Shown: piece by piece, positions 2,043 to 23,992 of the stretch | Numbering within the stretch: position 1 is the first letter of the stretch | How the letters are laid out: each line of letters begins with the position of its first letter | DNA from: Thermoplasmata archaeon | Lineage (GTDB): Archaea > Thermoplasmatota > E2 > JACPAO01 > JAHFTW01 | Length of the DNA: 64,000 nt | NCBI GenBank assembly: GCA_034667745.1 | Contig: JAXDQP010000062.1 | Coordinates: 958-64,957, forward strand | Direction of reading: 5' to 3' | Translations under genes and position numbers: made by a program | Notes under the pieces: generated by a model | What the model saw: the letters and a program-made list of their open reading frames with translations, nothing else | What the model was told of the DNA's origin: nothing | The model's database searches: none

Positions 2043-2446
2043 TCATCGCTTGCGCTGCGCGGCCATGCGCCCGGCCTTGAGACGCTGGTATGCGGGGTCG
2101 GCGCGCACCTTGTCCCACGCCGCCTTGAACGCCTCGGCGCTCGCCTGCTTCTGCGCGTCGGGGTCAAGCGGAAGCTCGCTCCCGTCCGCCGCCTTCTTGC
2201 GGCCGCTGCGGTGGCGCGCGTAGCGGCGGCTGCGGGTGTAGCCCATTTGTAGGAACTTGCGGCACATGTCCATCCCCGCGAAGTCCCCTTCCTTGCGATA
2301 GGCGCGGTAGCGGGCGAGGATTGCCTTGGCGCTGCGCTTGGCGATGGCTGGCGTGCGGAAGCGCCACAGTGGCAGGATGGCTTGCGTGTACGGGGGCGTG
2401 CTGAGGACGCCTTCCTCCCCGCGGCCGATGCGGTAGGCGCGCATCA
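2043..2446 (-). CDS. hypothetical basic protein (possibly DUF3253-like)
   Basis: 133 aa starting [12 protein letters not shown]; its ATG overlaps the hutU stop codon by 1 nt (TGATG), implying translational coupling; motif MCRKFLQMGYTRSRRYARHRSGRK. Confidence 0.5.
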
Positions 2447-4156
2447 CATCAGCGGCGTGCGGACCTTCTCCCTCTTCGCGACGGCCTTGGCCTTGGCGTA
2501 CCCCGCGTCGGCGTGGCGGACGATGCCCATGCCGGGGTCGGCGCGGAAGACGCGCTTGGCCTTCTCGCGCGCGAGCTTGGTGCCGTCGAGGACGACGACG
2601 ACGCCGGCGTGGGTGCTGTAGCCGATGCCGACGCCGCCGCCGTTGTGGATGTGGACCGAGTCCGCGCCCGCCGCGACGTTGAGCATGGCGTTGAGCAGCG
2701 GCCAGTCCGCGATGGCGTCGCTGCCGTCCAGCATGCCCTCGGTCTCGCGGTAGGGGCTCGCCACGCTGCCGCAGTCGAGGTGGTCGCGCGTCACGGCGAT
2801 GGGGCCAATCTCGCCCTTGCGCACGAGGTCGTTCATGGCGAGGGCGAAGCGGTCGCGCTCGCCCATGCCGAGCCAGCAGACGCGCGCCGCGAGGCCCTCC
2901 CACGGCAGGTGCTTCCCGGCGAGGTCGAGCCAGTTGTTGAGGGTGCGGTTCCTGGGGAACATCTCGCGCACGAGCTGCTCGGTGCGGCGGATGTCTTCGG
3001 GCCGGTTCTGCAGGCTGAGCCAGCGGAAGGGGCCGCGGCCCTCGCAGAACATGGGGCGGATGTAGGCTGGGACGAAGCCCGGGAAGCTGAACGCCGTGTC
3101 GCGGGCCAGGCCCCCGAGCCGCGCTCCCTCGCGGATGTTGTTGCCGTAGTCGAACACGTGGCTGCCGGCGCGGGCGAAGCCGACCATGGCCTCCACGTGG
3201 CGGGCCATCGACTCCTGCGCGAGCCTCGTGTGCTTGGCGGGGTCCTTCTGCCGCAGCGCAGCCGACGCCGCGACGGTGAGGCCGGCGGGGACGTAGCGCA
3301 GGGGGTCGTGCGCGCTCGTCTGGTCGGTCACGAGGTCCGGCTTGAACCCGGCCGCGAGCAGCGCGGGGAACGCCTCGGCCGCGTTGGCGAGGAGACCGAC
3401 CGAAAGGGGCTGCTTCGCGGCGGCGGCCTTCTCCACGAGGTCGAGCGCGAGGTCGAGGTCCTCCACGACCATGCCGAGGAAGCCGGACTCCAGGCGGCGC
3501 TGGGCGCGGGCCGGGTCCACCTCGACGCAGAGGGCGACGCCGCCGTTCATCGTGACGGCCAAGGGCTGCGCGCCCCCCATGCCGCCCAGCCCACCCGTCA
3601 GCACGGTGCGGCCGCGCAGGTCGGACTTGAAGTGGGTGCGCGCGGCGGCCGCGAACGTCTCGTAGGTCCCCTGGATGATGCCCTGCGTCCCGATGTAGCA
3701 CCAGGAGCCGGCCGTCATCTGGCCGTACATCGTGAGCCCCTCCGCCTCCAGCTTGTTGAACTCCGTCCAGTTGCTCCAGTGCGGCACGAGGTGGCTGTTG
3801 GCGATGAGGACGCGCGGCGCCTGCTCCCAGGTCGGGAAGATGGCGACCGGCTTGCCCGACTGGATGAGCAGCGTCTCGTCGTCGCCGAGCCCCGCGAGCG
3901 CCTTCTTGATGGCGGCGAGCGCCTTGGGGTTGCGCGCCGCCTTCCCGGTGCCGCCGTAGACGATGAGCTTGTCCGGCTCCTCCGCGTTGTGCAGGTTGTT
4001 CTCCAGCATCCGCAGGATGGCCTCGGTGCGCCACGACTTGCAGCGCAGCGGCGTGCGGGGGCCGGCCACGGCGGGGCGGGAGGTCGTCTTGGCGGGGCTC
4101 TTGGCGCCGGGCACGCGGTGGGGACCGGAGGCGGGCGCATAGCGGTTTCGTGCCAT
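2444..4156 (-). CDS. hutU: urocanate hydratase
   Basis: 570 aa; conserved urocanase blocks [10 protein letters not shown], DPx[15 protein letters not shown]; N-terminal start may be internal. Confidence 0.9.
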
Positions 4157-14079: not shown

Positions 14080-14104
14080 GTGGAGATTCCAGGAGTGCAG
14101 TGCA

Positions 14105-14928
14105 TGGTCCGGGTTGCGCTCTACACCCGCGTCTCGACGGAGGACCAGGCGAAGGAGGGCTTCAGCCTGGACGCCCAGCTCGACCGCCTCCGCTTCTACT
14201 CAAAGGCGCAGGGATGGGACGTCGCGGGCGAGTACGTCGACGAGGGGCACAGCGGCCGCACGACGAAGCGCCCAATGTACCAGAAGATGATGGCCGAGCG
14301 CGCCGCGTGGGATGTCCTCTTGGTCCTCAAGATGGACCGCATCCACCGCAACAGCCGCAACTTCATGGCGATGATGGACGAGCTGCGCAAGGAGCAGAAG
14401 GAGTTCGCCAGCGTCACGGAGAGCCTGGACACCGGCACCGCGATGGGCCGCTTCGTCATGGACATCATCCAGCGCATCGCGCAGCTGGAGTCGGACCAGA
14501 TTGGGGAGCGCACCTACGTCGGGATGGAGCAGAAGGCCAAGACCCGCGCCGGCAACCTGGGCAAGCCCGCGCCGTTCGGCTACCGCTACACGCCGGAGGG
14601 CCCGTTTGCCATCGTTCCAGAGGAAGCTACGTTTGTCAGGATTATGTTCGATTCATACGCGAAAGGCGAAAAAAGAGGCGATATAGCGCAAAAGTTGGTC
14701 GAAATGGGGTCGAGGACCCGGTCCGGAAAGGAGTGGGACCGCTGGGCCGTCGCTGACATTCTGCTCAACCCCACCTATGCCGGCGCCACGCAGTGGGCGG
14801 ACCAGGTGCAGCTCGACACCCACCCCGCCATCATCCCGCCGGAGCAGTTTGACGCCGTGCAGGAACGCACGAAAATGGACAGTCCGAAGGCAAACGTGAC
14901 CTTCCTGACCCGGCTCACGGTCAACTGA
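14105..14928 (+). CDS. serine recombinase (resolvase/invertase catalytic domain plus partial 'recombinase' domain; short, ~274 aa)
   Basis: N-terminus MVRVALYTRVSTEDQ (catalytic Ser in the YxRVST motif), DRIHRN; C-terminal part resembles the recombinase domain of large serine recombinases but lacks zinc ribbon and coiled coil. Confidence 0.85.
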
Positions 14929-14956: not shown

Positions 14957-14982
14957 GTGCCATACGGGCTCCCGTATGGCAC
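14957..14982. other. perfect 26-bp palindrome GTGCCATACGGG-CT-CCCGTATGGCAC (12-2-12), candidate serine-recombinase crossover site
   Basis: Read directly; 29 bp downstream of recombinase stop; geometry matches hix/gix/res-type sites with a central dinucleotide. Confidence 0.6.
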
Positions 14983-14994
14983 TCGGAGAGAACC
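14969..14994. repeat. direct repeat copy 1 CTCCCGTATGGCACTCGGAGAGAACC (pairs with 20745-20770)
   Basis: 26 bp, 25/26 identical to the second copy, same orientation; overlaps the right half of the palindrome. Confidence 0.8.
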
Positions 14995-15083
14995 AGGGGT
15001 CCTGCCGATTGCCATACGGGGTTCCGTGCCACGTGCGGCACGACGTCCGGTATATTTGACATATTCCGGCGGCCGCGCCGGAG

Positions 15084-15114: not shown

Positions 15115-15207
15115 ATGGACAAGCCGTTCGGCTGGAAGGCGTGGGTCGCGTTCGGGGCCTGCTCCGTGTTTGGGCTCGGCGCCCTCGCCTGGATCTTAGT
15201 GTCCTAG
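15115..15207 (+). CDS. putative 30-aa hydrophobic peptide MDKPFGWKAWVAFGACSVFGLGALAWILVS
   Basis: ATG..TAG ORF below the ORF-track size cutoff; single predicted TM helix; TATA-like box upstream. Confidence 0.3.
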   Translation: MDKPFGWKAWVAFGACSVFGLGALAWILVS

Positions 15208-15299
15208 GCAGTGGACCGCGACGGTGACGACCCCGAGGACGGCGGTCGACGCGAGGCCGAAGGCCCAGGACGCTAGGCGGGCGACGAGCCTCTGGTTCG

Positions 15300-16255
15300 T
15301 CATTCCCACTTCCTCCAGGGCTGGAGCCAGTCGCGGAAGGTGGCGAGGCCGTAGGGGTCGCGCTTCGTCTTCTCGACCTGCTCGGCGGACCACTCGCGGA
15401 CCGCGCGGTCGGGGGCGTCCCCGGCGCCGGGCGTGGCTGCGTTGACGAGCCAACGGGTGATGCCGGAAACGATGCCCGCAGACCCGGACGCGGCCTCGAC
15501 GCCCGTGACGATGGTGTGCCGGGCCGCGTAGTCGACGCCCCCGATGAACTCGTGCCCGACCGCGCTGCCGGTGTCGGCGCTGCCAGGCCAGATGATGGGC
15601 TCGAACGGGACCTTGACCCAGTCGCCCAGGTCAAGCTGCTTCTTCTCCGTCAGTCCGTCCCATCCTACGCCTGCGCCCCAGCCGGAGCTGGAGGATTTAT
15701 CGCCCTCGAGCGGGAGATATTCTTGCGAGCTGGGTGGGGGCGGGGCGACGTCGGCGTAGTGGGCGCCTGCGGGGTCGCGGCCGAGGTCGGCGGGTGGCGC
15801 GTCGAGGAAGTCCCAGTGTCCGTCCTTGGCGTCGTCGCGCAGGCGGAGGTTCAGGTCGAGGCGCGTCTGCGCTTCGGCTGCGGCCTGCTCGGGGTCGGCG
15901 TAGGTGCCGCGCACGTAGTTGGGGCCGCGGATGAAGTCGAGGATGCCGCGCGACTGCTCCACTTGAGCGTCAATCTGCGGGAGCCACTTGGACGCGTCCT
16001 CGCTGCTGCGAACGGAGTCGGCGAGGCGGCCCGCGTTCGGGGTCCACTTGAGCAAGTCGCTCCACGAGATGCGGGACGGCGCCGGAGCGGGCCCAGGAGC
16101 GGAGGCGGGCGTGGGCTCCGGCGCAGGAGTCTCTGGCGAGGGGGAGCTCCCAGGCGCAGGAGCGGGAGGGTGTTTCTTGCGCCACCAGAGCCACCCGCCC
16201 CAGCCCGCGAGGGCGGCCGCGCCGAGGGCGGCGGCTGCGACGTCGTCGCGCTGGG
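15300..16255 (-). CDS. island protein: N-terminal TM helix, Pro-rich linker, ~250-aa C-terminal domain of unknown function; no methionine anywhere in the 318 aa, start codon unresolved
   Basis: Long in-frame ORF immediately after the stop of the 16256-16750 gene; no ATG/GTG/TTG near its 5' end, first TTG is ~70 codons in; possible non-canonical start or -1 frameshift fusion with the upstream gene. Confidence 0.45.
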
Positions 16256-16750
16256 TCAGGTGAACTTCAACTCCCCGCTGACGGCGACGCCGTTGATGCC
16301 TGCGTCGGTGCTGACGACCTGGATGGTGATGCGGTCGCCGAGGGCGGCGACAGGTTCGTTCACGGTGTCGGCTTGCGCGTCGTTGGCAGCGGCCAGGGCG
16401 GGGTGCGTCACGGTGAGCGCGGACGCCACGCCGTTGATGAAGACCGTGACGACGACGGTCTCGCCTGCGCCCAGGGCGGTGCGCAGGACGCTGCGCAACT
16501 GGCGGATGCTGCCGGCGCGCGGCATGACGTAGCTGGATACGACGCTGACGGCGCCGAAGCCGCCGAGGCTGGCGTCCGTGTAGCCCTGCGGGTGGATGTA
16601 GCAGGTGGCGGCGGCCTGGAGCAGGGCGCCGCACCCGAAGGGCTTGCCGCGCTGCGAGTTGCCGAGCTTCGGCGCAGTGACGGCCTGGTCGTCTATCTCG
16701 GCGGTCTGGATGGTCTGGCCGACGCCAGCGCCGCGCCCGATGGTGGTCAC
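16256..16750 (-). CDS. island protein, 164 aa, beta-rich, unknown function
   Basis: ATG start; overlaps next gene by 4 nt (operon-like). Confidence 0.5.
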   Translation of the reverse strand: MTTIGRGAGVGQTIQTAEIDDQAVTAPKLGNSQRGKPFGCGALLQAAATCYIHPQGYTDASLGGFGAVSVVSSYVMPRAGSIRQLRSVLRTALGAGETVVVTVFINGVASALTVTHPALAAANDAQADTVNEPVAALGDRITIQVVSTDAGINGVAVSGELKFT

Positions 16751-17073
16751 TCGTAGGCCTCCAGTTCCTCAACATAGAGGTTGCCCGAGGCGGCATCCAA
16801 GTTGACCCAGAACTCGCCTTGGATGCTCTTGCCGTCGTGCTCGTAGTCCTTCACGATGCTGCCGCCGACGGCGTCGAGGCGGACGCCGCCAGTCAGGCTG
16901 CCGCCGGGGCGGCGGCGCAGGTGCGCGGCGTTGGCCTCGTTGTTGACCACGACGAGCGCGACCCGCAGGGGGTTGAAGGGGAGAAGGAGGGTGTCGACCG
17001 TGCCGACGGCCACGTTGCCCTCGGTCTTGATGCGCACGTTGCCCTTGGCGATGAGCGCGCGGACGTCGGGCAT
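16747..17073 (-). CDS. island protein, 108 aa, unknown function
   Basis: ATG start, 4-nt overlap with downstream gene. Confidence 0.5.
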   Translation of the reverse strand: MPDVRALIAKGNVRIKTEGNVAVGTVDTLLLPFNPLRVALVVVNNEANAAHLRRRPGGSLTGGVRLDAVGGSIVKDYEHDGKSIQGEFWVNLDAASGNLYVEELEAYE

Positions 17074-17076
17074 GGC

Positions 17077-17880
17077 TTACACCTTGGTGTTGACCGGGCG
17101 GACGTAGAGGTCCACGATTTGGACCTCATTGTCGGCGGCGTCGACCAGGAAGTCCGCCGTCGGCATGACCTGGGTGCTGAAGCGCCCGAGGACGCCCAGC
17201 TGGCCCGGCTCGAACATGGCGTGCGCGACGTCGGTGCGGGTGTCGTAGCACAGCACGCCGGGGCGGTGCGTCTGGCCCGCGAAGGCGAGGCGCATGGCGA
17301 TGCCGCTCGTGCTGATGGGGAACGCGGCCAGGACGTCGTAGACGCCCTCCAGCAGCGACTCGTCGGGGGTCAGCGCGCGGTTGTTCCAGTCGTTCGCGTT
17401 CATCGCGGCGGCGGCCGTGACGGTGCGAATCCAGAACCCGCCCTTGGGGTCCACGGCCTGCACGGGGCCGTCGCAGAACTGGGTCACGATGAACTGGTCC
17501 GTGGCGGCGGCCGGGTTGTTGACGGTCTCGTAGCCGACGAGCTCGCCGGGGCGCAGGCGGATGGGCTCGCGGCGGAAGTCGTTGACGACCGGCGGGGAGC
17601 CCGGCTCGACGGTGCTGGAGAGCTTGGGGACCTCGATGGCGCTGCGCTTGTAGGTGTCGCGCAGGCTGGGGGCGACGATGCGGCAGCGGGGCTGCACGGT
17701 GGCGTCGATGCCCGCGAACACGAACGCGACGCCGGGCAGTTCGCCGGGGACGCGGTAGAAGTCGCCGCTGCTGTCGCGCTGGAACAGCGGGGACAGGGTC
17801 TCCGCGATGGCGGCGAGCGGCTGGAGCGTGGCGGCGCCGTCCTGGTTCTCGAACCAGGCGACCATGTGCTGCCGCGTCAC
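17077..17880 (-). CDS. island protein, 267 aa, beta-rich (candidate structural/capsid-like protein; speculative)
   Basis: GTG start overlapping stop of upstream 50-aa gene (GTGA); no recognisable motif. Confidence 0.5.
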   Translation of the reverse strand: MTRQHMVAWFENQDGAATLQPLAAIAETLSPLFQRDSSGDFYRVPGELPGVAFVFAGIDATVQPRCRIVAPSLRDTYKRSAIEVPKLSSTVEPGSPPVVNDFRREPIRLRPGELVGYETVNNPAAATDQFIVTQFCDGPVQAVDPKGGFWIRTVTAAAAMNANDWNNRALTPDESLLEGVYDVLAAFPISTSGIAMRLAFAGQTHRPGVLCYDTRTDVAHAMFEPGQLGVLGRFSTQVMPTADFLVDAADNEVQIVDLYVRPVNTKV

Positions 17881-18029
17881 GCGAGCACCTCCAGGGCGGC
17901 GACCACTTCAGCGGGCGCGAGGGGCTGGAGGCGGGTCAGGCCGGGGCGCTTGACGGTGCCGTCCGCGTTGTAGACGAAGCCGGTCTCGGGGTCCCAGGCC
18001 TCGCGGTCCTTGTTGAGGATGACGGGCAT
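17877..18029 (-). CDS. small island protein, 50 aa (MPVILNKDREAWDPETGFVYNADGTVKRPGL...)
   Basis: ATG..TGA ORF found by manual translation, tightly packed between neighbours (3-nt gap upstream, GTGA overlap downstream). Confidence 0.45.
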   Translation of the reverse strand: MPVILNKDREAWDPETGFVYNADGTVKRPGLTRLQPLAPAEVVAALEVLA

Positions 18030-18032
18030 GGT

Positions 18033-18329
18033 TCACCAGATTTTGCGGCCGAACACCTTCGGCGAGCGGATTTTCAGGGCGCTGGCGATGCGCTTCTGGA
18101 GGCCGCGCCCCATCACGGGGATGGCCATCTGGGCGATGTTCCGGGCGGACACGGCCTCCTTGAGGGCGGGCTTGGCGGCGTTCATGGCGCCCTGCATGTC
18201 GCCGTTCATCGCCGCCTGGACGGCAGGGGTGAACGGCTCGACGGCCTGGACGACGATGTTCGTGGCGACGGCGAGGTCGCTCCAGGACTGCTTCGGCTTG
18301 CGGGGCTTGCTGTTCTTGGGCTTGGTCAT
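18033..18329 (-). CDS. small basic island protein, 98 aa (Lys/Arg-rich N-terminus, possible nucleic-acid binding)
   Basis: MTKPKNSKPRKPKQSW..; ATG start. Confidence 0.5.
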   Translation of the reverse strand: MTKPKNSKPRKPKQSWSDLAVATNIVVQAVEPFTPAVQAAMNGDMQGAMNAAKPALKEAVSARNIAQMAIPVMGRGLQKRIASALKIRSPKVFGRKIW

Positions 18330-18351
18330 GTCAGTGGTCTCCTTGGGTGTC

Positions 18352-18457
18352 TTACTTGCCCCACGTGGGGCGGGGGGCGAGGCGGCGCTTGCACTTGTTG
18401 TAGGCGCTCTTCTTGCGGTGCAGCCCGTGGCAGTACGGGCACTTCTTCAGTTGGGCC
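18352..18457 (-). CDS. 35-aa zinc-ribbon peptide MAQLKKCPYCHGLHRKKSAYNKCKRRLAPRPTWGK
   Basis: CPxC...C spacing typical of a zinc ribbon; ORF below track cutoff, found manually. Confidence 0.4.
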
Positions 18458-18460
18458 ATG

Positions 18461-18913
18461 TCAGGCGGGTCTCCAGGTGTTTTCCTTCGTTGCGTCGTTC
18501 ATGTGGGGGACAGTGCGGAGGAACGGTTCGAGGATGGGCTTCCAGCGGGCGCCGGACTCGTAGACGCCTTGCATGGTGTCCGGGCCGAGGAAGGCCTCGA
18601 TGCGCGCCACGTTGTCCGGGCCGAAGCGCTGCGCGATGAGCGTCTTGACCTCGACCTTCGTGGCGAGGGCGGTCAGGCGCTTCTCTTCGGCCTTCTGCCA
18701 GCGCAGGGCGGCGGCGTCCGTGGGGTCCACGCCGCCGCGCATGACGCCGGGCTTCAGCAGCGCATCCAGCCGAGCGCCTAGACGCGTCTCGGCGGCTGCA
18801 ATGTCGCGGTTGACGCGGGGGATGGTGTGCAACGTGGCGATGCAGGTGTCGGTGACGCACTGGGCGAACAGGCCGATGATGAAGGCGCCGATGGTCAGCA
18901 AAACCTGGTCCAT
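18461..18913 (-). CDS. island protein, 150 aa, N-terminal hydrophobic segment (membrane-associated)
   Basis: MDQVLLTIGAFIIGLFAQCV.. hydrophobic N-terminus. Confidence 0.45.
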   Translation of the reverse strand: MDQVLLTIGAFIIGLFAQCVTDTCIATLHTIPRVNRDIAAAETRLGARLDALLKPGVMRGGVDPTDAAALRWQKAEEKRLTALATKVEVKTLIAQRFGPDNVARIEAFLGPDTMQGVYESGARWKPILEPFLRTVPHMNDATKENTWRPA

Positions 18914-19339
18914 GTTTCACAGCAAGGATTGAACAGCATTTAGCTAGCGAGGTTTTCGGCTAAACGAGCGAATACATGTGGCGAGCTTGCGCTAAACAGC
19001 GTCCCAAATGCGTTCCGTGCGTTGACCTTAAGGGGAAACGCCAGCGTTGGGGGGTTTGGGGGGCGTAGGATGGAGCACAGGATTACCTGGGCGCACAGGC
19101 GCACAAGGCGACCGGACAAGGCGGCATCCTCAGCGGCCGGACAAGGGGGAGGTATGGAGGGGGAGCACCCCTTACGGCACGGTGCTCGCTTCGCTCGCGC
19201 CCCGTCATCTTGGGCGCGCTGCTGCGCGCACCCCCGACCGAGAGGAATCCCCCGGACCCCAGCCCGGAATCGACGGCAAGGCCCCTAGGCGCGCGTCCCT
19301 TGGCTCAGAAAAGGGAAGAAGGGGGAAGAGGCGACCGGG

Positions 19340-19549
19340 CTAGGATTCGAGCCAGCGCGCGCCCTGCGGAAGGGGCTCGTTGGCGGGCCACCACCCGGCG
19401 CGGCCGTCCACGCCCGCGGCGTAGCGCACGTGGGTGTGGCTGCCGTCAGGCCAGCTGACGCGCATGGTGCGCGCCCGAGGCGTAGGGCGGGCCGGTCGGA
19501 AGTCTCGGCGGGCGAGTTGGCAGCGGCAGCTAGTCGTCTTCTTGGCCAT
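19340..19549 (-). CDS. possible small Cys-containing protein, 69 aa
   Basis: ATG ORF MAKKTTSCRCQLARRD..; weak support. Confidence 0.25.
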   Translation of the reverse strand: MAKKTTSCRCQLARRDFRPARPTPRARTMRVSWPDGSHTHVRYAAGVDGRAGWWPANEPLPQGARWLES

Positions 19550-19775
19550 CGGGGGCCTCCACTCCAGACCTAGCCGAGCTGGCGGATTTATTCCGTGCCG
19601 ACGTCGCCTTGCCCAGCTGGAGCTCCGCGAGGCGGCCCAGGCGCGAGCTCACCGAGTGATAGCTCCAGGGGCGGTCCTTGAACGCGGGGTGCTTGTAGGC
19701 GTCGAGCTTGCGGATGCGCTCGGCCAGGCTGACCGGGATGCTGATGGTGGTGCGAGGCTCCTTGCTCACCGTCAC
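19530..19775 (-). CDS. ribbon-helix-helix (CopG/Arc-like) DNA-binding protein, ~80 aa
   Basis: GTG start overlapping upstream stop (GTGA); beta-strand TTISIPVSL followed by helices LAERIRKL..; the longer 117-aa ORF is probably an over-extension. Confidence 0.45.
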   Translation of the reverse strand: MTVSKEPRTTISIPVSLAERIRKLDAYKHPAFKDRPWSYHSVSSRLGRLAELQLGKATSARNKSASSARSGVEAPDGQEDD

Positions 19776-19903
19776 ACCACCGTGGGCGCGCGGGGACAGG
19801 TGGCGTGGTAGCAGGCGCTGCACACCACGGGCTTGCTGTCGGGGTCGAGCCAGCCCGGGTGTCCGCCCCGGCAGCCAGGGCACGAGTCGCAGAAGCCGCT
19901 CAC
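19772..19903 (-). CDS. small zinc-finger protein (~43 aa: VSGFCDSCPGC...CSACYHATCP)
   Basis: Two CxxC pairs; GTG start overlapping upstream stop (GTGA). Confidence 0.4.
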   Translation of the reverse strand: MSGFCDSCPGCRGGHPGWLDPDSKPVVCSACYHATCPRAPTVV

Positions 19904-20079
19904 GCGATAGCCCCCCGGCCGATGGCGTCGAGGATGCCGGGCTTGTCGAGGAGCTTCTCGACGCGGTCGAGGAGCCGGACGCAACTGGTGAGGGTTCCTC
20001 GACACTCGACCTCGACCTGTCCGATGCGGACGGAGATGCTGTTCCCGTAGTCCGGGCGGAGCCGGGCGGCGCGGCCCAT
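19900..20079 (-). CDS. small island protein, 59 aa
   Basis: ATG at 20079 immediately after upstream stop (TGACGATG); manual translation MGRAARLRPDYGNSISVRIGQVEVECRG.. Confidence 0.4.
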   Translation of the reverse strand: MGRAARLRPDYGNSISVRIGQVEVECRGTLTSCVRLLDRVEKLLDKPGILDAIGRGAIA

Positions 20080-20081
20080 CG

Positions 20082-20249
20082 TCAGGCCCCCGGCTTGCGC
20101 CAGCTGTTGCCGCCGTGCTGGCGGCAGTCGTTGTAGCTCAGGAGCTCGTAGGTCTCCGAGTTGCGCGACCAGGTGCAGCCGCAGGGCGCGGTGACCTGCT
20201 CCTCCTTGGCGGCCTTGGGGTGGAACGCCTTGCGCAGCAGGCCCTTCAC
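20082..20249 (-). CDS. small Cys-containing island protein, 55 aa
   Basis: GTG start overlapping stop of 20246 gene (GTGA); VKGLLRKAFHPKAAKEEQVTAPCGCTW.. Confidence 0.35.
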   Translation of the reverse strand: MKGLLRKAFHPKAAKEEQVTAPCGCTWSRNSETYELLSYNDCRQHGGNSWRKPGA

Positions 20250-20719
20250 TGCGACGCCCCCGGCACAGGGAGGTCCGAGTCCGAGTCCGTCAGGGGTCGT
20301 GCGACGCTCACGACTGTGAGGTGGAACGTCTTCTTCAGGCCCCGGCCTTCGCTGTGGATATCCAGGACGACGTTGCCGCTCCAGTCGGGGCCGCTGCGCA
20401 CGATGACGTCACGCAGGGAGACGGCCGCCGGGAGGCTCAGGATTTCCCAGACGCTCTCACGGGCGGTGCCTACTTCCAGGAAGGTCGCCACCGCGTACTT
20501 GGTGACGGCCTTCGAGCTCACGATGTTCCCGTTGTCGTCGTGGTTGGCGATGGTGTGCGGGATGCCCTGGGGGCCGTAGCCCTTCACGTCCACCAGGACG
20601 ACGCGCTGGGGCGTGCTCTCCGGCTGGAAGAACGTGGGCTTCGCCTTGTCGGGGAGGTTCAGGCCCGCGAGCCACGCGCCACGGTCAAGGGTCTTCTGTT
20701 CAGGGGTCGTCTCTTGCAT
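20246..20719 (-). CDS. island protein, ~157 aa (ATG at 20719; alternative GTG at 20758 lies inside the direct repeat)
   Basis: MQETTPEQKTLDRGAWLAGLNLP..; unknown function. Confidence 0.5.
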   Translation of the reverse strand: MQETTPEQKTLDRGAWLAGLNLPDKAKPTFFQPESTPQRVVLVDVKGYGPQGIPHTIANHDDNGNIVSSKAVTKYAVATFLEVGTARESVWEILSLPAAVSLRDVIVRSGPDWSGNVVLDIHSEGRGLKKTFHLTVVSVARPLTDSDSDLPVPGASQ

Positions 20720-20744
20720 ACGGTTCGCTCCAAATTGGCTCGAA

Positions 20745-20770
20745 CTCCCGTATGGCACTCGAAGAGAACC
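20745..20770. repeat. direct repeat copy 2 CTCCCGTATGGCACTCGAAGAGAACC
   Basis: 25/26 identity with 14969-14994, same orientation; the sequence to its left does not match the left palindrome half. Confidence 0.8.
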
Positions 20771-20792: not shown

Positions 20793-21176
20793 TCATTTTT
20801 GTGCAGAACTGGCCAAAATCATCAGGATGTCCGCTTCCAACTGGCTCAGCAGCCGGGTGAGGAACAGGTAGACCAAGGTGAGGAGGCCGGTGAGCGCGCC
20901 GGCCACGCGAACGGCGGCGGTGACGACCGGGGTTGCCTGTGAGAGTCCGGGGACGAAGTTGGCCGCCAGGCCGACGACGGTGCCGGCGAAGCCCAGGTAG
21001 AGCAGCACGAGGGCGCCGGTGCGGACGCGGTCCCAGCGGCGCAGGCTTGCGGCGCGCTCGTGCAGGAGGCTGTCGCGGCCGCGGCTGCCCAGCTCGAGGG
21101 CCTGCAGGATGTGCCCATAGCGGCTGTGCAATAGCCACTGGAGGCGGGACTCGTAGGGGTACACGCGGCCGGCAAG
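20793..21176 (-). CDS. small membrane protein (two predicted TM helices); start uncertain (TTG/GTG)
   Basis: C-terminal part GALVLLYLGFAGTVVGLAANFV..VVTAAVRVAGALTGLLTLVYLFL hydrophobic; no internal ATG. Confidence 0.4.
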   Translation of the reverse strand, partial: LAGRVYPYESRLQWLLHSRYGHILQALELGSRGRDSLLHERAASLRRWDRVRTGALVLLYLGFAGTVVGLAANFVPGLSQATPVVTAAVRVAGALTGLLTLVYLFLTRLLSQLEADILMILASSAQK

Positions 21177-21596: not shown

Positions 21597-21863
21597 TCAG
21601 TCGAGCAGCGTGAACAGGACGTCATCCTGCCCCACGTCGAACACGCCCAGCCGCGCGCCCGCGTCGAGCCAGCCGTGCGCGTAGTTGACCTGCGCGAACG
21701 CGTTCACGAAGTCGCCCTGGGCGTGGAAGTGCTGCGCGTCGGCGTAGTAGCGCTTGGCCATGTCGAGGAAGTTGTCGGCGATCTTGGCCGCGAAGGACTT
21801 CGGCGGCGCCACGACCTTGACCTTCTCGAAGGCGCGCCGCGTGGTGTCGAGGTACTTCCCCAT
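21597..21863 (-). CDS. small conserved archaeal protein, 88 aa (DUF357-like guess)
   Basis: MGKYLDTTRRAFEKVKVV..YYADAQHFHAQGDFVNAFAQVNYAHGWLDAGARLG; 29-nt gap after the HerA-like gene, same strand. Confidence 0.5.
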   Translation of the reverse strand: MGKYLDTTRRAFEKVKVVAPPKSFAAKIADNFLDMAKRYYADAQHFHAQGDFVNAFAQVNYAHGWLDAGARLGVFDVGQDDVLFTLLD

Positions 21864-21892: not shown

Positions 21893-23992
21893 TCAACGCC
21901 ACAGCCGGCGCAAGGTGGAGCGGGTCTTTTGCCGTTCCTGCTGCAGCAGGCGGTGGTAGGTGCAGCCCGCCTGCTCGGGGCAGCGGATGCAGGCCGGTCC
22001 CTCCGGCAGGCAGGCGTTCTCCGCGATCTCCAGCAGCAGCCGCAGGCGGGCGTCGGGGTCGCGGTGGTGTGACGCCTCGAGGTCGCCGACGATGGCGACG
22101 GTGCGCGCGGGGTCCTGGTCTGGCCCCACGAGGCCGATGCGGGAGGCGACGCGGTGGATGTCCTTGGCGTCCCCGGCGGTCCAGCTCTTGCGGACCTTGT
22201 GGGCGAGGAACGCGTCGTCCGGGATGAGGCGGCGCGGGGAGCGGGGCAGCGTCTGGAACTCGACCTCGGGCGCCTGGACCGGGAGGACCGGCTTGGGGCG
22301 CGCGGGCGGCGCGATGGCCGGGGCAGCGGGCGAGGCAGCGGGAGCCGGTGGGACGGGCGCAGGCGGGGGTTGGAACGCGCTGGGCGGCGTCCACACCGGC
22401 GCCACGGGCTTCGGCGGGTCAACACTCGGGGCCGGGTTCAGGGGCGCGCGGGGCGCAGGGGGCGGCAGAACGGGCGCCTGGGGCGCTTCGCCATCGTCCT
22501 CCTCTTCGTCCTCGTCCGACTCCTGGTGCAGCACGGACACGGAGCGGCCGCCGTGGCGCGTCAGGCGGGGGCGCACCGACACGAAGACCGGCTGCGTGAG
22601 GCCGCCACCCGCCACGAGGGCCTCCCCCACGGCGAGGCGCTGGATTTCATCGGCGACCTCCGCCGAGATGCCCTCGACGCTCTGGACGATGGCCTTGAGG
22701 TCATTCGGGTTCGTGACCTTCAGCACGACCTGGGTGTTGCACTGCGACAGCACGTTCTTGTCGATCTTCGCCGGGCGCTGGCTCACGATGACGAGGCCCA
22801 TGCCGAATTTGCGGCCCTCCGAGGCCACGGTGCGGATGATGGCTCCGCTCACGGCGTTGCCCACGTTCCTTTCCGGGCAGAAGTTGTGCGCCTCCTCCAC
22901 CACGAGGATGTGCGCGGGAATCTCGCCGCGCTTGCGCGCCTCCCAGAGCATGTTCGCGATTCGCGTGACGACGATCTCCTGGATGTCGGGGTTGACACCC
23001 TTGAGGTTCACGATGGTGCACTGGCCCGGCGCGACCAGCTCCTTGACGGGGGTGCCGCGGATGTCGAAGACCTTCGTGGACTCCAGGACCTCGAGGGCGT
23101 TGAGGACGTTCCACTTGGCGTTCGATTTGTTGCGCGCGACGCCGTCCATGATGTCGCGCAGCGTGTAGGCGGGGAGATGCTCCTTGATCTCCTTGATGGC
23201 CTGGTAGAGCACGCCCACCTGGCCGCCGGAGAGCTTGCCGCCCAGCAGGTCCACGATGTCGCGGCCCTCCAGGTTCATGCCCTCCAGCACCAGGCGCTGC
23301 GCTTCGGGGTTGAGCTGGACGTCGAGGGCGTACTCCTTGACCTGCTTGGCGAACGACTTGGGCTTCACCTTGTAGCGCGCCATCGCCTCCAGCTCGCCCT
23401 CGTCGAGGTTGGGGCTCCGCAGGGAGCCGTACTCGCCGTGCGGGTCGAGGATGACCAGCGGCACGTTGGCCTTGATGAGCTCCTCCAGGATGACCGCGAC
23501 GGTGTAGGATTTGCCGGCGCCGGTCTTCGCCAGCACCGAGAGGTGCTTCTGCGCCACCGTGTCCATGGAGAGCGCGACGGGAATCTTGCTGCCCTTGACG
23601 AAGCCGAGGTAGGCGCCGCCCTCCGCCGACTGCTCCAGCCCCAGCACGGTCGTGACGAGGCGGTCGTCGGCGTTGTAGACCGGCACCCCGGCGCGGAACG
23701 GCGTGCGCGGCGTCTGGATGCGGCCCTGCTGGTCCTGGTAGCCGATGACGCGCACGCCGGCCGAGAGCTGGTCCTCGGCATCGGCGGCCAGCCCCTCGGG
23801 AATCGCGACGGCCTGCTCGTAGCTCAGGCTGCTGCGCCGCAGGACGGCGTCGACCTGCGCCAGGACGCGGTGGCCCTCGGACTCCACCTCGACGTAGTCC
23901 AGGCGCTTGAGCCCGGAGTCCCCCACGGCGATGTCGAACGCGGTGCTCGACACGTTGCCGTAGATGATGCCGACCTGGCGGCGCAGGGCCAT
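21893..23992 (-). CDS. HerA-like (DUF87/FtsK-HerA superfamily) ATPase with N-terminal HAS-barrel-like region, Pro-rich linker and C-terminal Cys-cluster domain
   Basis: Walker A LAKTGAGKS, Walker B HILVVEEAH; acidic patch DEDEEEDDGE then ~80 aa Pro-rich; C-terminus ..ACLPEGPACIRCPEQAGC.. Confidence 0.8.
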   Translation of the reverse strand: MALRRQVGIIYGNVSSTAFDIAVGDSGLKRLDYVEVESEGHRVLAQVDAVLRRSSLSYEQAVAIPEGLAADAEDQLSAGVRVIGYQDQQGRIQTPRTPFRAGVPVYNADDRLVTTVLGLEQSAEGGAYLGFVKGSKIPVALSMDTVAQKHLSVLAKTGAGKSYTVAVILEELIKANVPLVILDPHGEYGSLRSPNLDEGELEAMARYKVKPKSFAKQVKEYALDVQLNPEAQRLVLEGMNLEGRDIVDLLGGKLSGGQVGVLYQAIKEIKEHLPAYTLRDIMDGVARNKSNAKWNVLNALEVLESTKVFDIRGTPVKELVAPGQCTIVNLKGVNPDIQEIVVTRIANMLWEARKRGEIPAHILVVEEAHNFCPERNVGNAVSGAIIRTVASEGRKFGMGLVIVSQRPAKIDKNVLSQCNTQVVLKVTNPNDLKAIVQSVEGISAEVADEIQRLAVGEALVAGGGLTQPVFVSVRPRLTRHGGRSVSVLHQESDEDEEEDDGEAPQAPVLPPPAPRAPLNPAPSVDPPKPVAPVWTPPSAFQPPPAPVPPAPAASPAAPAIAPPARPKPVLPVQAPEVEFQTLPRSPRRLIPDDAFLAHKVRKSWTAGDAKDIHRVASRIGLVGPDQDPARTVAIVGDLEASHHRDPDARLRLLLEIAENACLPEGPACIRCPEQAGCTYHRLLQQERQKTRSTLRRLWR

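Follow-up and report, generated by a model that had tools for sequence, protein, structure and literature searches.

The minus strand between positions 17877 and 20249 of a 64,000-nucleotide (nt) stretch of a Thermoplasmata archaeon contig (JAXDQP010000062.1; the whole stretch is called the window below) carries a train of very small, tightly packed genes, and the locus raises the question of what these genes belong to. The earlier note on this DNA had read them as the early or regulatory region of a mobile genetic element, and not as part of a metabolic island. We consider it likely that the train forms the middle of an integrated virus-like element of 5,776 bp and falls into two transcription units, and that the element encodes no recombinase and sits at the palindromic target site of a recombinase of its host; within this reading, translational coupling and catalysis by the host enzyme are what we infer from the arrangement of genes and sites. 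The mobile nature of the region is strongly supported by its attachment (att) junctions, by about 20 empty sites, by circular relatives of 6 kb and by a capsid-like protein. The host is a Thermoplasmata metagenome-assembled genome of ~70% G+C, the genes that flank the element are archaeal (MCM, Hef, XPD, NMD3 and HerA) and the deposited proteins of the window carry the locus tags QOG31_1408-1416. A haloarchaeal host, as the G+C content and the archaeal genes might suggest, is rejected, since Thermoplasmata or Thermoplasmatota are given in the NCBI and GTDB records.

The element is bounded by a 26-nt direct repeat, identical at 25 of its 26 positions, at 14969-14994 and 20745-20770 (spacing 5,776 bp). 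The junctions are imperfect palindromes of 11-2-11 layout and form a hybrid attL and attR, close to a recombinase gene:

14104-14928, plus strand: host short serine recombinase, 274 amino acids (aa), outside the element; Pfam PF00239 and PF07508
14958-14981: attL, TGCCATACGGG-CT-CCCGTATGGCA (B arm, CT crossover, P' arm)
20736-20757: attR, TTGGCTCGAA-CT-CCCGTATGGCA (P arm, CT crossover, B' arm)

The excised element is predicted to carry the attP junction …ATTGGCTCGAA-CT-CCCGTATGGCACTCGGAGAGAACC…, and the restored attB is predicted to read TGCCATACGGG-CT-CCCGTATGGCACTCGAAGAGAACC. In the related locus L001 the flanks are collinear with those of the window at 83-88% nucleotide identity, with host homology resuming at 20796, and the body between the sites is ~70% identical and inverted. 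The same site is empty in about 20 related genomes, the recombinase gene directly adjoins a host gene for a protein with two transmembrane helices in 12 loci, and none of the 80 recombinase loci that were fetched contains element genes. The empty sites hold one intact palindrome in the spacer after the recombinase stop; it reads TGCCATACGGG-AC-CCCGTATGGCA in L012, and its centre is AG in L014 and TT in L015. It follows that the 5.8-kb body was inserted into a palindrome beside the host recombinase gene.

Relatives of the element also occur as circles, recognized by their terminal overlaps: L003 (6,245 bp), L005 (5,973 bp), L007 (6,006 bp), L093 (6,021 bp) and L096 (5,944 bp). All elements have one block in common, namely w150, in some cases w35, then w98, w50, w267, w108, w164, a transmembrane and proline-rich protein of ~340 aa and a transmembrane peptide of 31-46 aa. 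The remainder is interchangeable. It consists of a serine resolvase alone or with small genes (L008, L096), of a resolvase with a DNA methylase (L003, L005), or of the w170 family with assorted small genes (the window, L001, L004, L093 and L098). L007 encodes at 2165-3121 a HUH rolling-circle replication protein (Rep; PF23343, motifs HIH and YxxK, here YLSKYLSK), also found in L006 and L092, which hints that some members replicate by rolling circle; these may have single-stranded DNA genomes.

The conserved module of the window copy is of virion type and runs from 18913 down to 15196. It opens with w150, w35, w98 and w50, and continues from w267 onward:

18461-18913, minus strand: w150, 150 aa, first gene of the structural operon, N-terminal transmembrane helix (by eye)
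18352-18459, minus strand: w35, 35 aa, net charge +11, 1-nt gap after w150
18033-18329, minus strand: w98, 98 aa, basic N-terminus and hydrophobic core, 22-nt gap after w35
17877-18029, minus strand: w50, 50 aa, 3-nt gap after w98, motif NKD.E.WDP..G.VYNDDGTV.RPGL
17077-17880, minus strand: w267, 267 aa, GTGA overlap with the w50 stop, candidate major capsid protein
16747-17073, minus strand: w108, 108 aa, 3-nt gap after w267
16256-16750, minus strand: w164, 164 aa, GTGA overlap, conserved N-terminus and variable C-terminus
15300-16259, minus strand: transmembrane, proline-rich structural gene, ~319 aa, N-terminal transmembrane helix (by eye), proline-rich linker and conserved C-terminal domain
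15196-15303, minus strand: w35b, 35-aa transmembrane peptide (by eye), last gene of the structural operon, ATGA overlap, called by JGI

The protein on which a viral reading turns is w267. It has 32 homologues, all of them unannotated and many on contigs of 5.2-7.4 kb. Its AlphaFold model has a predicted local distance difference test score (pLDDT) of 95.1 and a predicted template-modelling score of 0.92, and places strands in residues 4-136 and 149-262, about eight in each half; as modelled, w267 is a single polypeptide with two consecutive eight-stranded jelly rolls. The Foldseek lists for w267 include PM2 P2 (269 aa), PRD1 P3, the major capsid protein of tectivirus GC1, capsid proteins of PBCV-1 and SGIV, and DUF2961. 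The conserved block also encodes transmembrane proteins and basic proteins, which are further virus-like traits. We regard w267 as a probable, not a proven, capsid protein of the double-jelly-roll (DJR) kind.

Several observations count against this assignment. The Foldseek similarity to DJR capsids is weak (TM-scores of 0.2-0.3, E-values of 1e-3 to 5e-2), the best domain-level matches are generic C1q/TNF-like jelly rolls, and a profile of the w267 family matches no sequence in the PDB. Additionally, the element has no packaging ATPase and this copy has no recognizable replication protein; Pfam and PHROGs scans detect no recombinase, Rep, ATPase or P-loop domain in any of its open reading frames (ORFs). 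The gene for HerA at 21893-23992 (699 aa) lies outside attR together with a DUF357 gene (21597-21863), and both are syntenic in the genomes with an empty site. They are host genes, and this HerA is not the packaging ATPase of the element.

The same evidence would suit a small integrative plasmid or cryptic element in which w267 is a lectin-, adhesin- or C1q-like protein of two jelly-roll domains and the conserved block has envelope or transfer functions. The best-superposing Foldseek matches are single C1q/TNF-like jelly rolls, a Bacillus exosporium protein and a 152-aa protein of an uncultured virus, and the low capsid scores, the missing ATPase, the lack of any PHROG or Pfam match and the absence of the family from IMG/VR and INPHARED all fit such an element. 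However, the block is made up as in icosahedral viruses with an internal membrane, with a two-jelly-roll protein of ~267 aa followed by a protein of ~110 aa, basic arginine-rich or zinc-knuckle proteins and several small transmembrane proteins. It is retained from element to element even though the genes for replication and integration change (Rep, resolvase with methylase, w170), and genome sizes fall within a narrow range of 5.9-6.2 kb, such as a capsid limit would impose. A plasmid of this kind is therefore unlikely, and a virus-like element is the reading that we prefer.

Such an element would resemble the Corticoviridae (PM2) and PM2-like integrated elements, which likewise have a small circular genome, a major capsid protein of ~269 aa with two jelly rolls, small membrane proteins that point to an internal membrane, and a fixed structural block with interchangeable replication and integration modules (including a rolling-circle Rep), and which occur both as free circles and as integrated copies. 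It differs in its size (~6 kb against 10 kb), in the lack of an FtsK/HerA-type packaging ATPase, in its archaeal host and in showing no detectable sequence similarity and weak structural similarity to PM2 (TM-score 0.26 to 2vvf_A). The Finnlakeviridae (FLiP, a single-stranded DNA virus with a DJR capsid) offer a second comparison: they too have a small genome and no packaging ATPase, their DJR-type capsid protein would correspond to w267, and L007 has a HUH Rep. FLiP, however, has 9.2 kb and infects Flavobacterium, whereas the window copy has neither Rep nor integrase and the present elements may have either single- or double-stranded DNA genomes.

The small genes at the start of the conserved module fit a structural role. 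Homologues of w150 are present in every element, those of w98 in all elements, and those of w50 (48-72 aa) in L001, L003, L005 and L007. The earlier note had called w35 a zinc ribbon. Four ligands are indeed conserved, since C7, C10, H14 and C23 are the same in the window, L001, L007 and L093 whereas H11 varies, but they do not form the two CxxC pairs of a ribbon, and w35 is better termed a conserved CCHC zinc knuckle with predicted metal binding. It is 97% identical to its counterpart in L001, 77% to that in L007 and 64% to that in L093. In the elements that lack w35, w98 has 135-154 aa with an arginine-rich N-terminal extension, and w35 and w98 therefore look like the split form of one basic structural protein. 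We propose w35 as a candidate DNA-condensing protein and w98 as a candidate genome- or membrane-associated structural protein, both with a putative role in binding or condensing the genome. The small w35, the basic N-terminus of w98 and the arginine-rich extensions of its homologues are reminiscent of the charge-neutralizing packaging peptides of small single-stranded DNA viruses (protein J of the Microviridae and the arginine-rich N-terminal arms of the circovirus Cap), which are also encoded near the capsid gene. There is no sequence relationship to these peptides, however, w35 has a CCHC knuckle, and the proposed function follows from composition and position.

Against a background of 55-75%, a 150-nt segment at 18353-18502, which takes in the whole of w35 together with the last part of w150, reaches a nucleotide identity of 97-100% to L001. 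The segment is also 80% identical to L006 and L007, whose neighbouring genes are 51-53% identical, and synonymous sites are conserved as well. A structured RNA was considered as the cause and rejected (fold z-score -0.13, covariation term +0.25). The island of identity could stem from recent exchange between elements or from a cis-acting DNA signal.

The second, variable module runs from 20719 down to 19340 and comprises w170 followed by w55, w59, w43, w81 and w69. The non-coding region that separates it from the structural genes is listed with it:

20246-20719, minus strand: w170, 157 aa from the ATG at 20719, first gene of the variable operon, conserved family
20082-20249, minus strand: w55, 55 aa, CxC...CxxH, GTGA overlap with the w170 stop, third-position G+C content (GC3) 0.98, GCCGGGGG 7 nt upstream
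19900-20079, minus strand: w59, 59-aa ORFan, 2-nt gap after w55, GCCGGGGG 7 nt upstream
19772-19903, minus strand: w43, 43 aa, rich in cysteine and histidine (CxxCxxC...CxxCxHxxC), GTGA overlap, GCCGGGGG 8 nt upstream
19530-19775, minus strand: w81, 81 aa, GTGA overlap, putative small DNA-binding protein with a ribbon-helix-helix (RHH)-like N-terminus, RTTISIPVSLAERIRKL
19340-19549, minus strand: w69, 69 aa, last gene of the variable operon, 20-nt overlap on w81
18914-19339: non-coding control region, 426 nt, no frame signal

For w170 the mechanical ORF list gives too long a gene, since the longest ORF starts at a GTG at 20758 and runs across the integration junction. This GTG falls beyond attR in host DNA, and the ATG at 20719 must be the true start. 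Homologues of w170 occur in L001, L004, L093 and L098; the family has no Pfam match and no match in a profile search of PDB sequences. The region from 20246 to 19340 aligns with L001 at random level only, in contrast with the lower module, which is 55-100% identical. It is therefore a module replacement and not a diverged homologue.

All of the small ORFs that the earlier note had listed are present, and w69 is an eighth small gene. The minus strand from 17877 to 20249 thus holds nine genes, eight of them of 35-98 aa, with GTGA overlaps or short gaps between most; the train is interrupted by the 150-aa gene w150 and by the 426-nt non-coding gap. The overlaps between stop and start that had been reported are borne out for GTGA, at w55, w43 and w81 and, at the lower edge, where the w267 start (17880) overlaps the w50 stop. 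They are not borne out for ATGA, which does not occur inside this range (there is one such overlap at 15300-15303), and besides the 20-nt overlap of w69 with w81 the remaining junctions are gaps of 1, 2, 3 and 22 nt.

Are all of these small genes real? The window has ~70% G+C with long spurious ORFs in every frame, and we therefore relied on GC3. The GC3 maximum (0.85-1.0) switches frame exactly at the proposed gene junctions from 17.9 to 20.3 kb, and the pattern of G+C at the first codon position exceeding that at the second marks the minus strand as coding. A codon model was trained on 23 confident genes of the window and scored as log-odds in bits per codon. True in-frame chunks score 0.79 +/- 0.19, and 63 spurious ORFs of 35-100 aa, used as the null, score -1.40 +/- 0.73 with a maximum of -0.28. 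The small genes score 0.96 (w50), 0.69 (w35), 0.69 (w59), 0.64 (w55), 0.57 (w98), 0.51 (w81), 0.37 (w69) and 0.12 (w43). Shine-Dalgarno (SD)-like motifs precede 10 of the 13 internal starts, against a background of 17% (P = 3.6e-6). The starts that lack one are those of w55, w59 and w43, each of which has the 8-mer GCCGGGGG 7-8 nt upstream, a word with only eight copies across the 64 kb. The JGI and NCBI pipelines each called w55, w59, w81, w69, w150, w35, w98 and w50, and neither called w43. Taken together, these results confirm the small genes as real, with w43 as the weakest call.

Homologues in related elements were found for five of the small genes (w35, w98, w50, w81 and w69). The homologue of w81, P0044 (82 aa, 37% identity, E = 5e-7), was the sole match besides w81 itself in an exhaustive search of 1.84 billion representative sequences, and the N-terminal motif RTTISIPV.LAER is conserved between the two. 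On the contig of P0044 (L091), the next ORF encodes 66 aa that are 52% identical to w69 over residues 2-66; it overlaps its upstream neighbour by 23 nt and is followed by a gap and a w150 homologue. This synteny therefore supports w81, w69 and the w69 start at 19549.

Certain results count against parts of this gene model. No homologue of w55, w59 or w43 was found in any of the related elements fetched (about 20 element sequences), and the codon log-odds of w43 is ambiguous. An ORF inside the 426-nt gap scores 0.10, with a GC3 of 0.63. The ratio of non-synonymous to synonymous substitution rates is uninformative for the conserved small ORFs, because synonymous sites are saturated at a GC3 of ~0.95, and w267 itself has a ratio of 0.6-0.9. 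A word-indexed search of 5.8 billion proteins with a concatenated query of five ORFs returned nothing, but it missed the window's own deposited proteins too, and with w170 it returned only the self-match and missed a homologue of 51% identity. This search fails its positive control for small proteins, and the absence of homologues is therefore weakly established. A match of w55 to a small ORF of L003 (E = 0.02) was noise on inspection.

These gaps in conservation would be explained if the upper small ORFs from w55 to w69, or at least w43, w55 and w59, were non-coding filler left by the module swap and kept open by high G+C, and the random-level alignment with L001 and the uncalled w43 fit that explanation. 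Against it, w55, w59 and w81 score 0.51-0.69 per codon when none of the spurious ORFs exceeds -0.28, the GC3 of the upper ORFs is 0.87-0.98 (0.91 in w43 against 0.50 upstream in the same frame) with the frame switching exactly at the stop-start overlaps and the neighbouring gap at 0.63, w81 and w69 have syntenic homologues in L091, and the rare GCCGGGGG stands before each ORFan start. We consider filler very improbable; w55, w59 and, least certainly, w43 are more likely small proteins specific to this element.

The identification of w81 as an RHH protein, made in the earlier note, is not confirmed. It matches no Pfam or PHROG family at E <= 1, and so no curated RHH profile. Its AlphaFold model, built from two sequences, has a pLDDT of 56, with an extended N-terminus and helices at residues 15-23, 30-33 and 36-61; the model is compatible with an RHH fold but proves nothing. 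The comparison with the early operons of archaeal viruses and plasmids that encode RHH and zinc-finger mini-proteins is apt for the upper half of the train (w55 to w69), where ORFans of 40-100 aa with high turnover are packed together, some rich in cysteine and histidine and some with an RHH-like N-terminal strand. It is not apt for w150, w35, w98 and w50, which are conserved structural genes that open their own module behind a TATA-like box, and no protein matches a curated RHH or zinc-finger family. The cysteine/histidine-rich and DNA-binding-like proteins of the upper module would most likely be regulators or replication accessories acting on repeats of the control region.

Two further elements bear on the variety of such trains. 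L093 encodes at 2142-2513, in the place of the window's tiny ORFans, a 123-aa protein with an N-terminal cysteine cluster followed by alanine-rich tandem repeats (AAYDAAVE[PT]A[RS]). L095, a distant relative on an 8,832-bp contig that closes to a circle of 8,802 bp, has a capsid-like protein of 34% identity, a 950-aa protein and a divergent train of seven genes of 37-107 aa, so that trains of this architecture are also present in a larger sister group.

The control region at 18914-19339 has a T/pyrimidine-rich, terminator-like tract following the w69 stop, three CCT(T/A)G(T/C)CCGG(T/C)CGC repeats (CCTTGTCCGG-type) and, ~30 nt ahead of the w150 ATG, a TATA-like box (GCTAAA). The box, as GCTAAA…GTT.A..CC, is common to the window, L003, L005 and L008, and equivalent non-coding gaps of 320-470 nt precede the structural block in all elements. 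A scan for sigma-70 promoters and intrinsic terminators gave chance-level results, with models that are not applicable to archaea. The train is probably not one polycistronic RNA, being split by the gap, the T-rich tract and the box. The tract after w69 and the box before w150 suggest two transcription units, so that the 15 genes of the 6-kb genome would be expressed from two promoters, and the position of the box would give a leaderless late transcript. Within each unit, the stop-start overlaps (GTGA, ATGA) or gaps of 1-3 nt, together with the SD-like motifs, would let ribosomes terminate and then re-initiate.

The recombinase beside the element belongs to the host. It has only the Pfam Resolvase and Recombinase domains, its NCBIfam match is limited to the N-terminal ~250 aa of CcrB/CcrA/XisF, and it lacks the zinc-ribbon and coiled-coil part, which sets it apart from the large serine integrases (phiC31, Bxb1 and Ccr type, 450-700 aa). 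The gene is 85% identical to that of L001 at the nucleotide level, like the host flanks. A probe of the GTDB genomes gave ~260 relatives, nearly all in Thermoplasmatota; the order lipB, recombinase, two-transmembrane gene, DUF357, HerA is kept in about 20 of the closest species, and divergence of the recombinase tracks that of housekeeping genes. The recombinase is vertically inherited and host-resident, and it is not the element's own. Across Thermoplasmatota (loci L011-L090) its site lies ~30-300 nt downstream of the recombinase stop, with arms that co-vary with the enzyme and a 2-nt centre that differs between species (AC, AG, TT, CT, AA). A role for the enzyme as a substitute for Xer was considered unlikely, as Thermoplasma has XerA (PMC8371274). 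The same review describes the serine recombinases of archaea as never having been investigated in full (PMC8371274).

The element integrated at the host palindrome ~30 nt downstream of the recombinase gene, with an attP arm that copies a half-site of that palindrome. In both integrated elements attP reads, in the element's own orientation, as a host-like arm, the 2-nt centre and a divergent arm. The host short serine recombinase probably catalyses integration and excision in trans, and the distribution of the host-like arm among the circles supports this. Both complete circles without a recombinase have the arm and centre in non-coding DNA (gTGCCATTCGGG-TT in L007, an exact 14-mer in common with the L001 junction, and TGCCAGTCGGG-CT in L093). 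Of the four circles that encode a resolvase, L003, L005 and L096 lack the arm, and L008 has a single chance-level match inside a coding region. One case speaks against a general rule: L004, of the w170 type, is integrated beside a PAC2 gene and not beside the recombinase, so that the hijacking of this enzyme is not universal.

The orientation of the insert is set by the central dinucleotide, which is the known polarity rule of serine recombinases. The centre of the window element is AG, the reverse complement of the host CT, and the insert is inverted; in L001 both element and host have TT, and the insert lies in direct orientation. That the 5.8-kb segment is instead an invertible, phase-variable piece of chromosome flipped by the adjacent recombinase in the manner of Gin or Hin is scarcely credible: the position of the recombinase just beyond the segment, the perfect palindrome at one boundary and the inversion of the body between the window and L001 would fit it, but about 20 related genomes lack the segment while each keeps one intact palindrome, the bodies are ~70% identical and include a non-homologous module when the flanks are 85% identical, relatives occur as free circles, and the crossover dinucleotides (CT, TT) are non-palindromic and form direct repeats in each genome, favouring excision over inversion. 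A third copy of the 11-nt half-site (TGCCATACGGG-GT-…) lies on the minus strand at 15010-15020, 28 nt inside the element from attL and in inverted orientation to the P' arm, and might serve the recombinase as an accessory binding site.

In its mode of integration the virus-like element is comparable with the integrative mobile elements exploiting Xer (IMEX, e.g. CTXphi), which also encode no recombinase and integrate at the target site of a conserved recombinase of the host chromosome, a site that their attP imitates. It differs from them in that a serine recombinase is involved, with a 2-nt crossover and an 11-2-11 palindrome, and not the tyrosine recombinases XerC/D or XerA at dif. The 2-nt spacer does not fit the spacing of tyrosine recombinases, and the target lies ~30 nt downstream of the recombinase gene itself.

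We rate the family as undescribed and as a combination of known kinds, a small provirus-like element with a putative internal membrane and a jelly-roll protein on the one hand and an exploiter of a host recombinase on the other. No relative of it was found in INPHARED by tblastn, in PLSDB by blastn, or in the GTDB representative genomes and IMG/VR with the w267 family as query. Scans with w81 of the JGI metagenome and IMG/VR gave no relative, Pfam and PHROGs gave no match for any small ORF or structural gene, and a literature search gave no description. Tentatively, these may be the smallest known viruses with a DJR capsid, of ~6 kb, without a packaging ATPase and infecting Thermoplasmata, the lineage of the window additionally having given up an integrase and imitating one half-site of the palindrome on which a conserved, chromosomally inherited short serine recombinase acts; it would then be the serine counterpart of the IMEX, with the 2-nt crossover of the host dictating entry and orientation.

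If the capsid reading is true, DJR viruses extend to genomes of ~6 kb and to Thermoplasmata, to our knowledge a phylum with very few known viruses. The family would then also form a natural series, with the same virion module joined to a rolling-circle Rep, to a resolvase and methylase, or to neither. Whatever w267 is, the serine recombinase whose target site this mobile element uses resides in the host and is conserved across Thermoplasmatota, and the locus supplies a defined set of attB, attP and enzyme that is directly testable in vitro. In elements of this kind, gene callers overlook genes or place their starts wrongly, as shown by w43 (uncalled), w170 (a second possible start in host DNA) and the ~319-aa gene (CTG where a start codon is expected).

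The remaining genes of the structural operon follow w267. The w108 family (104-123 aa) always follows the capsid-like gene and has homologues in 11 elements, with no sequence match in Pfam or in a profile search of the PDB; by its position w108 is a candidate penton or minor capsid protein. The next gene, w164, is a candidate spike or host-recognition protein. The ~319-aa gene has CTG (CTGA overlap, 16256-16259) where homologues such as that of L001 have GTG (GTGA). Its first canonical start, a TTG at 16055 that was used by JGI (251 aa), would delete the conserved transmembrane helix and the proline-rich linker. The gene may re-initiate at the near-cognate CTG, or this may be a defective copy; the lack of a canonical start is a point against an intact structural operon. 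Positional counterparts of w35b, transmembrane peptides of 31-46 aa, occur in L001, L003, L004, L007, L093 and L096. On the plus strand, a possible ORF for a 30-aa transmembrane peptide (15115-15207, GC3 0.93) is convergent with w35b and overlaps its end, and at the equivalent position L001 has a transmembrane-rich ORF of 96 aa on the opposite strand.

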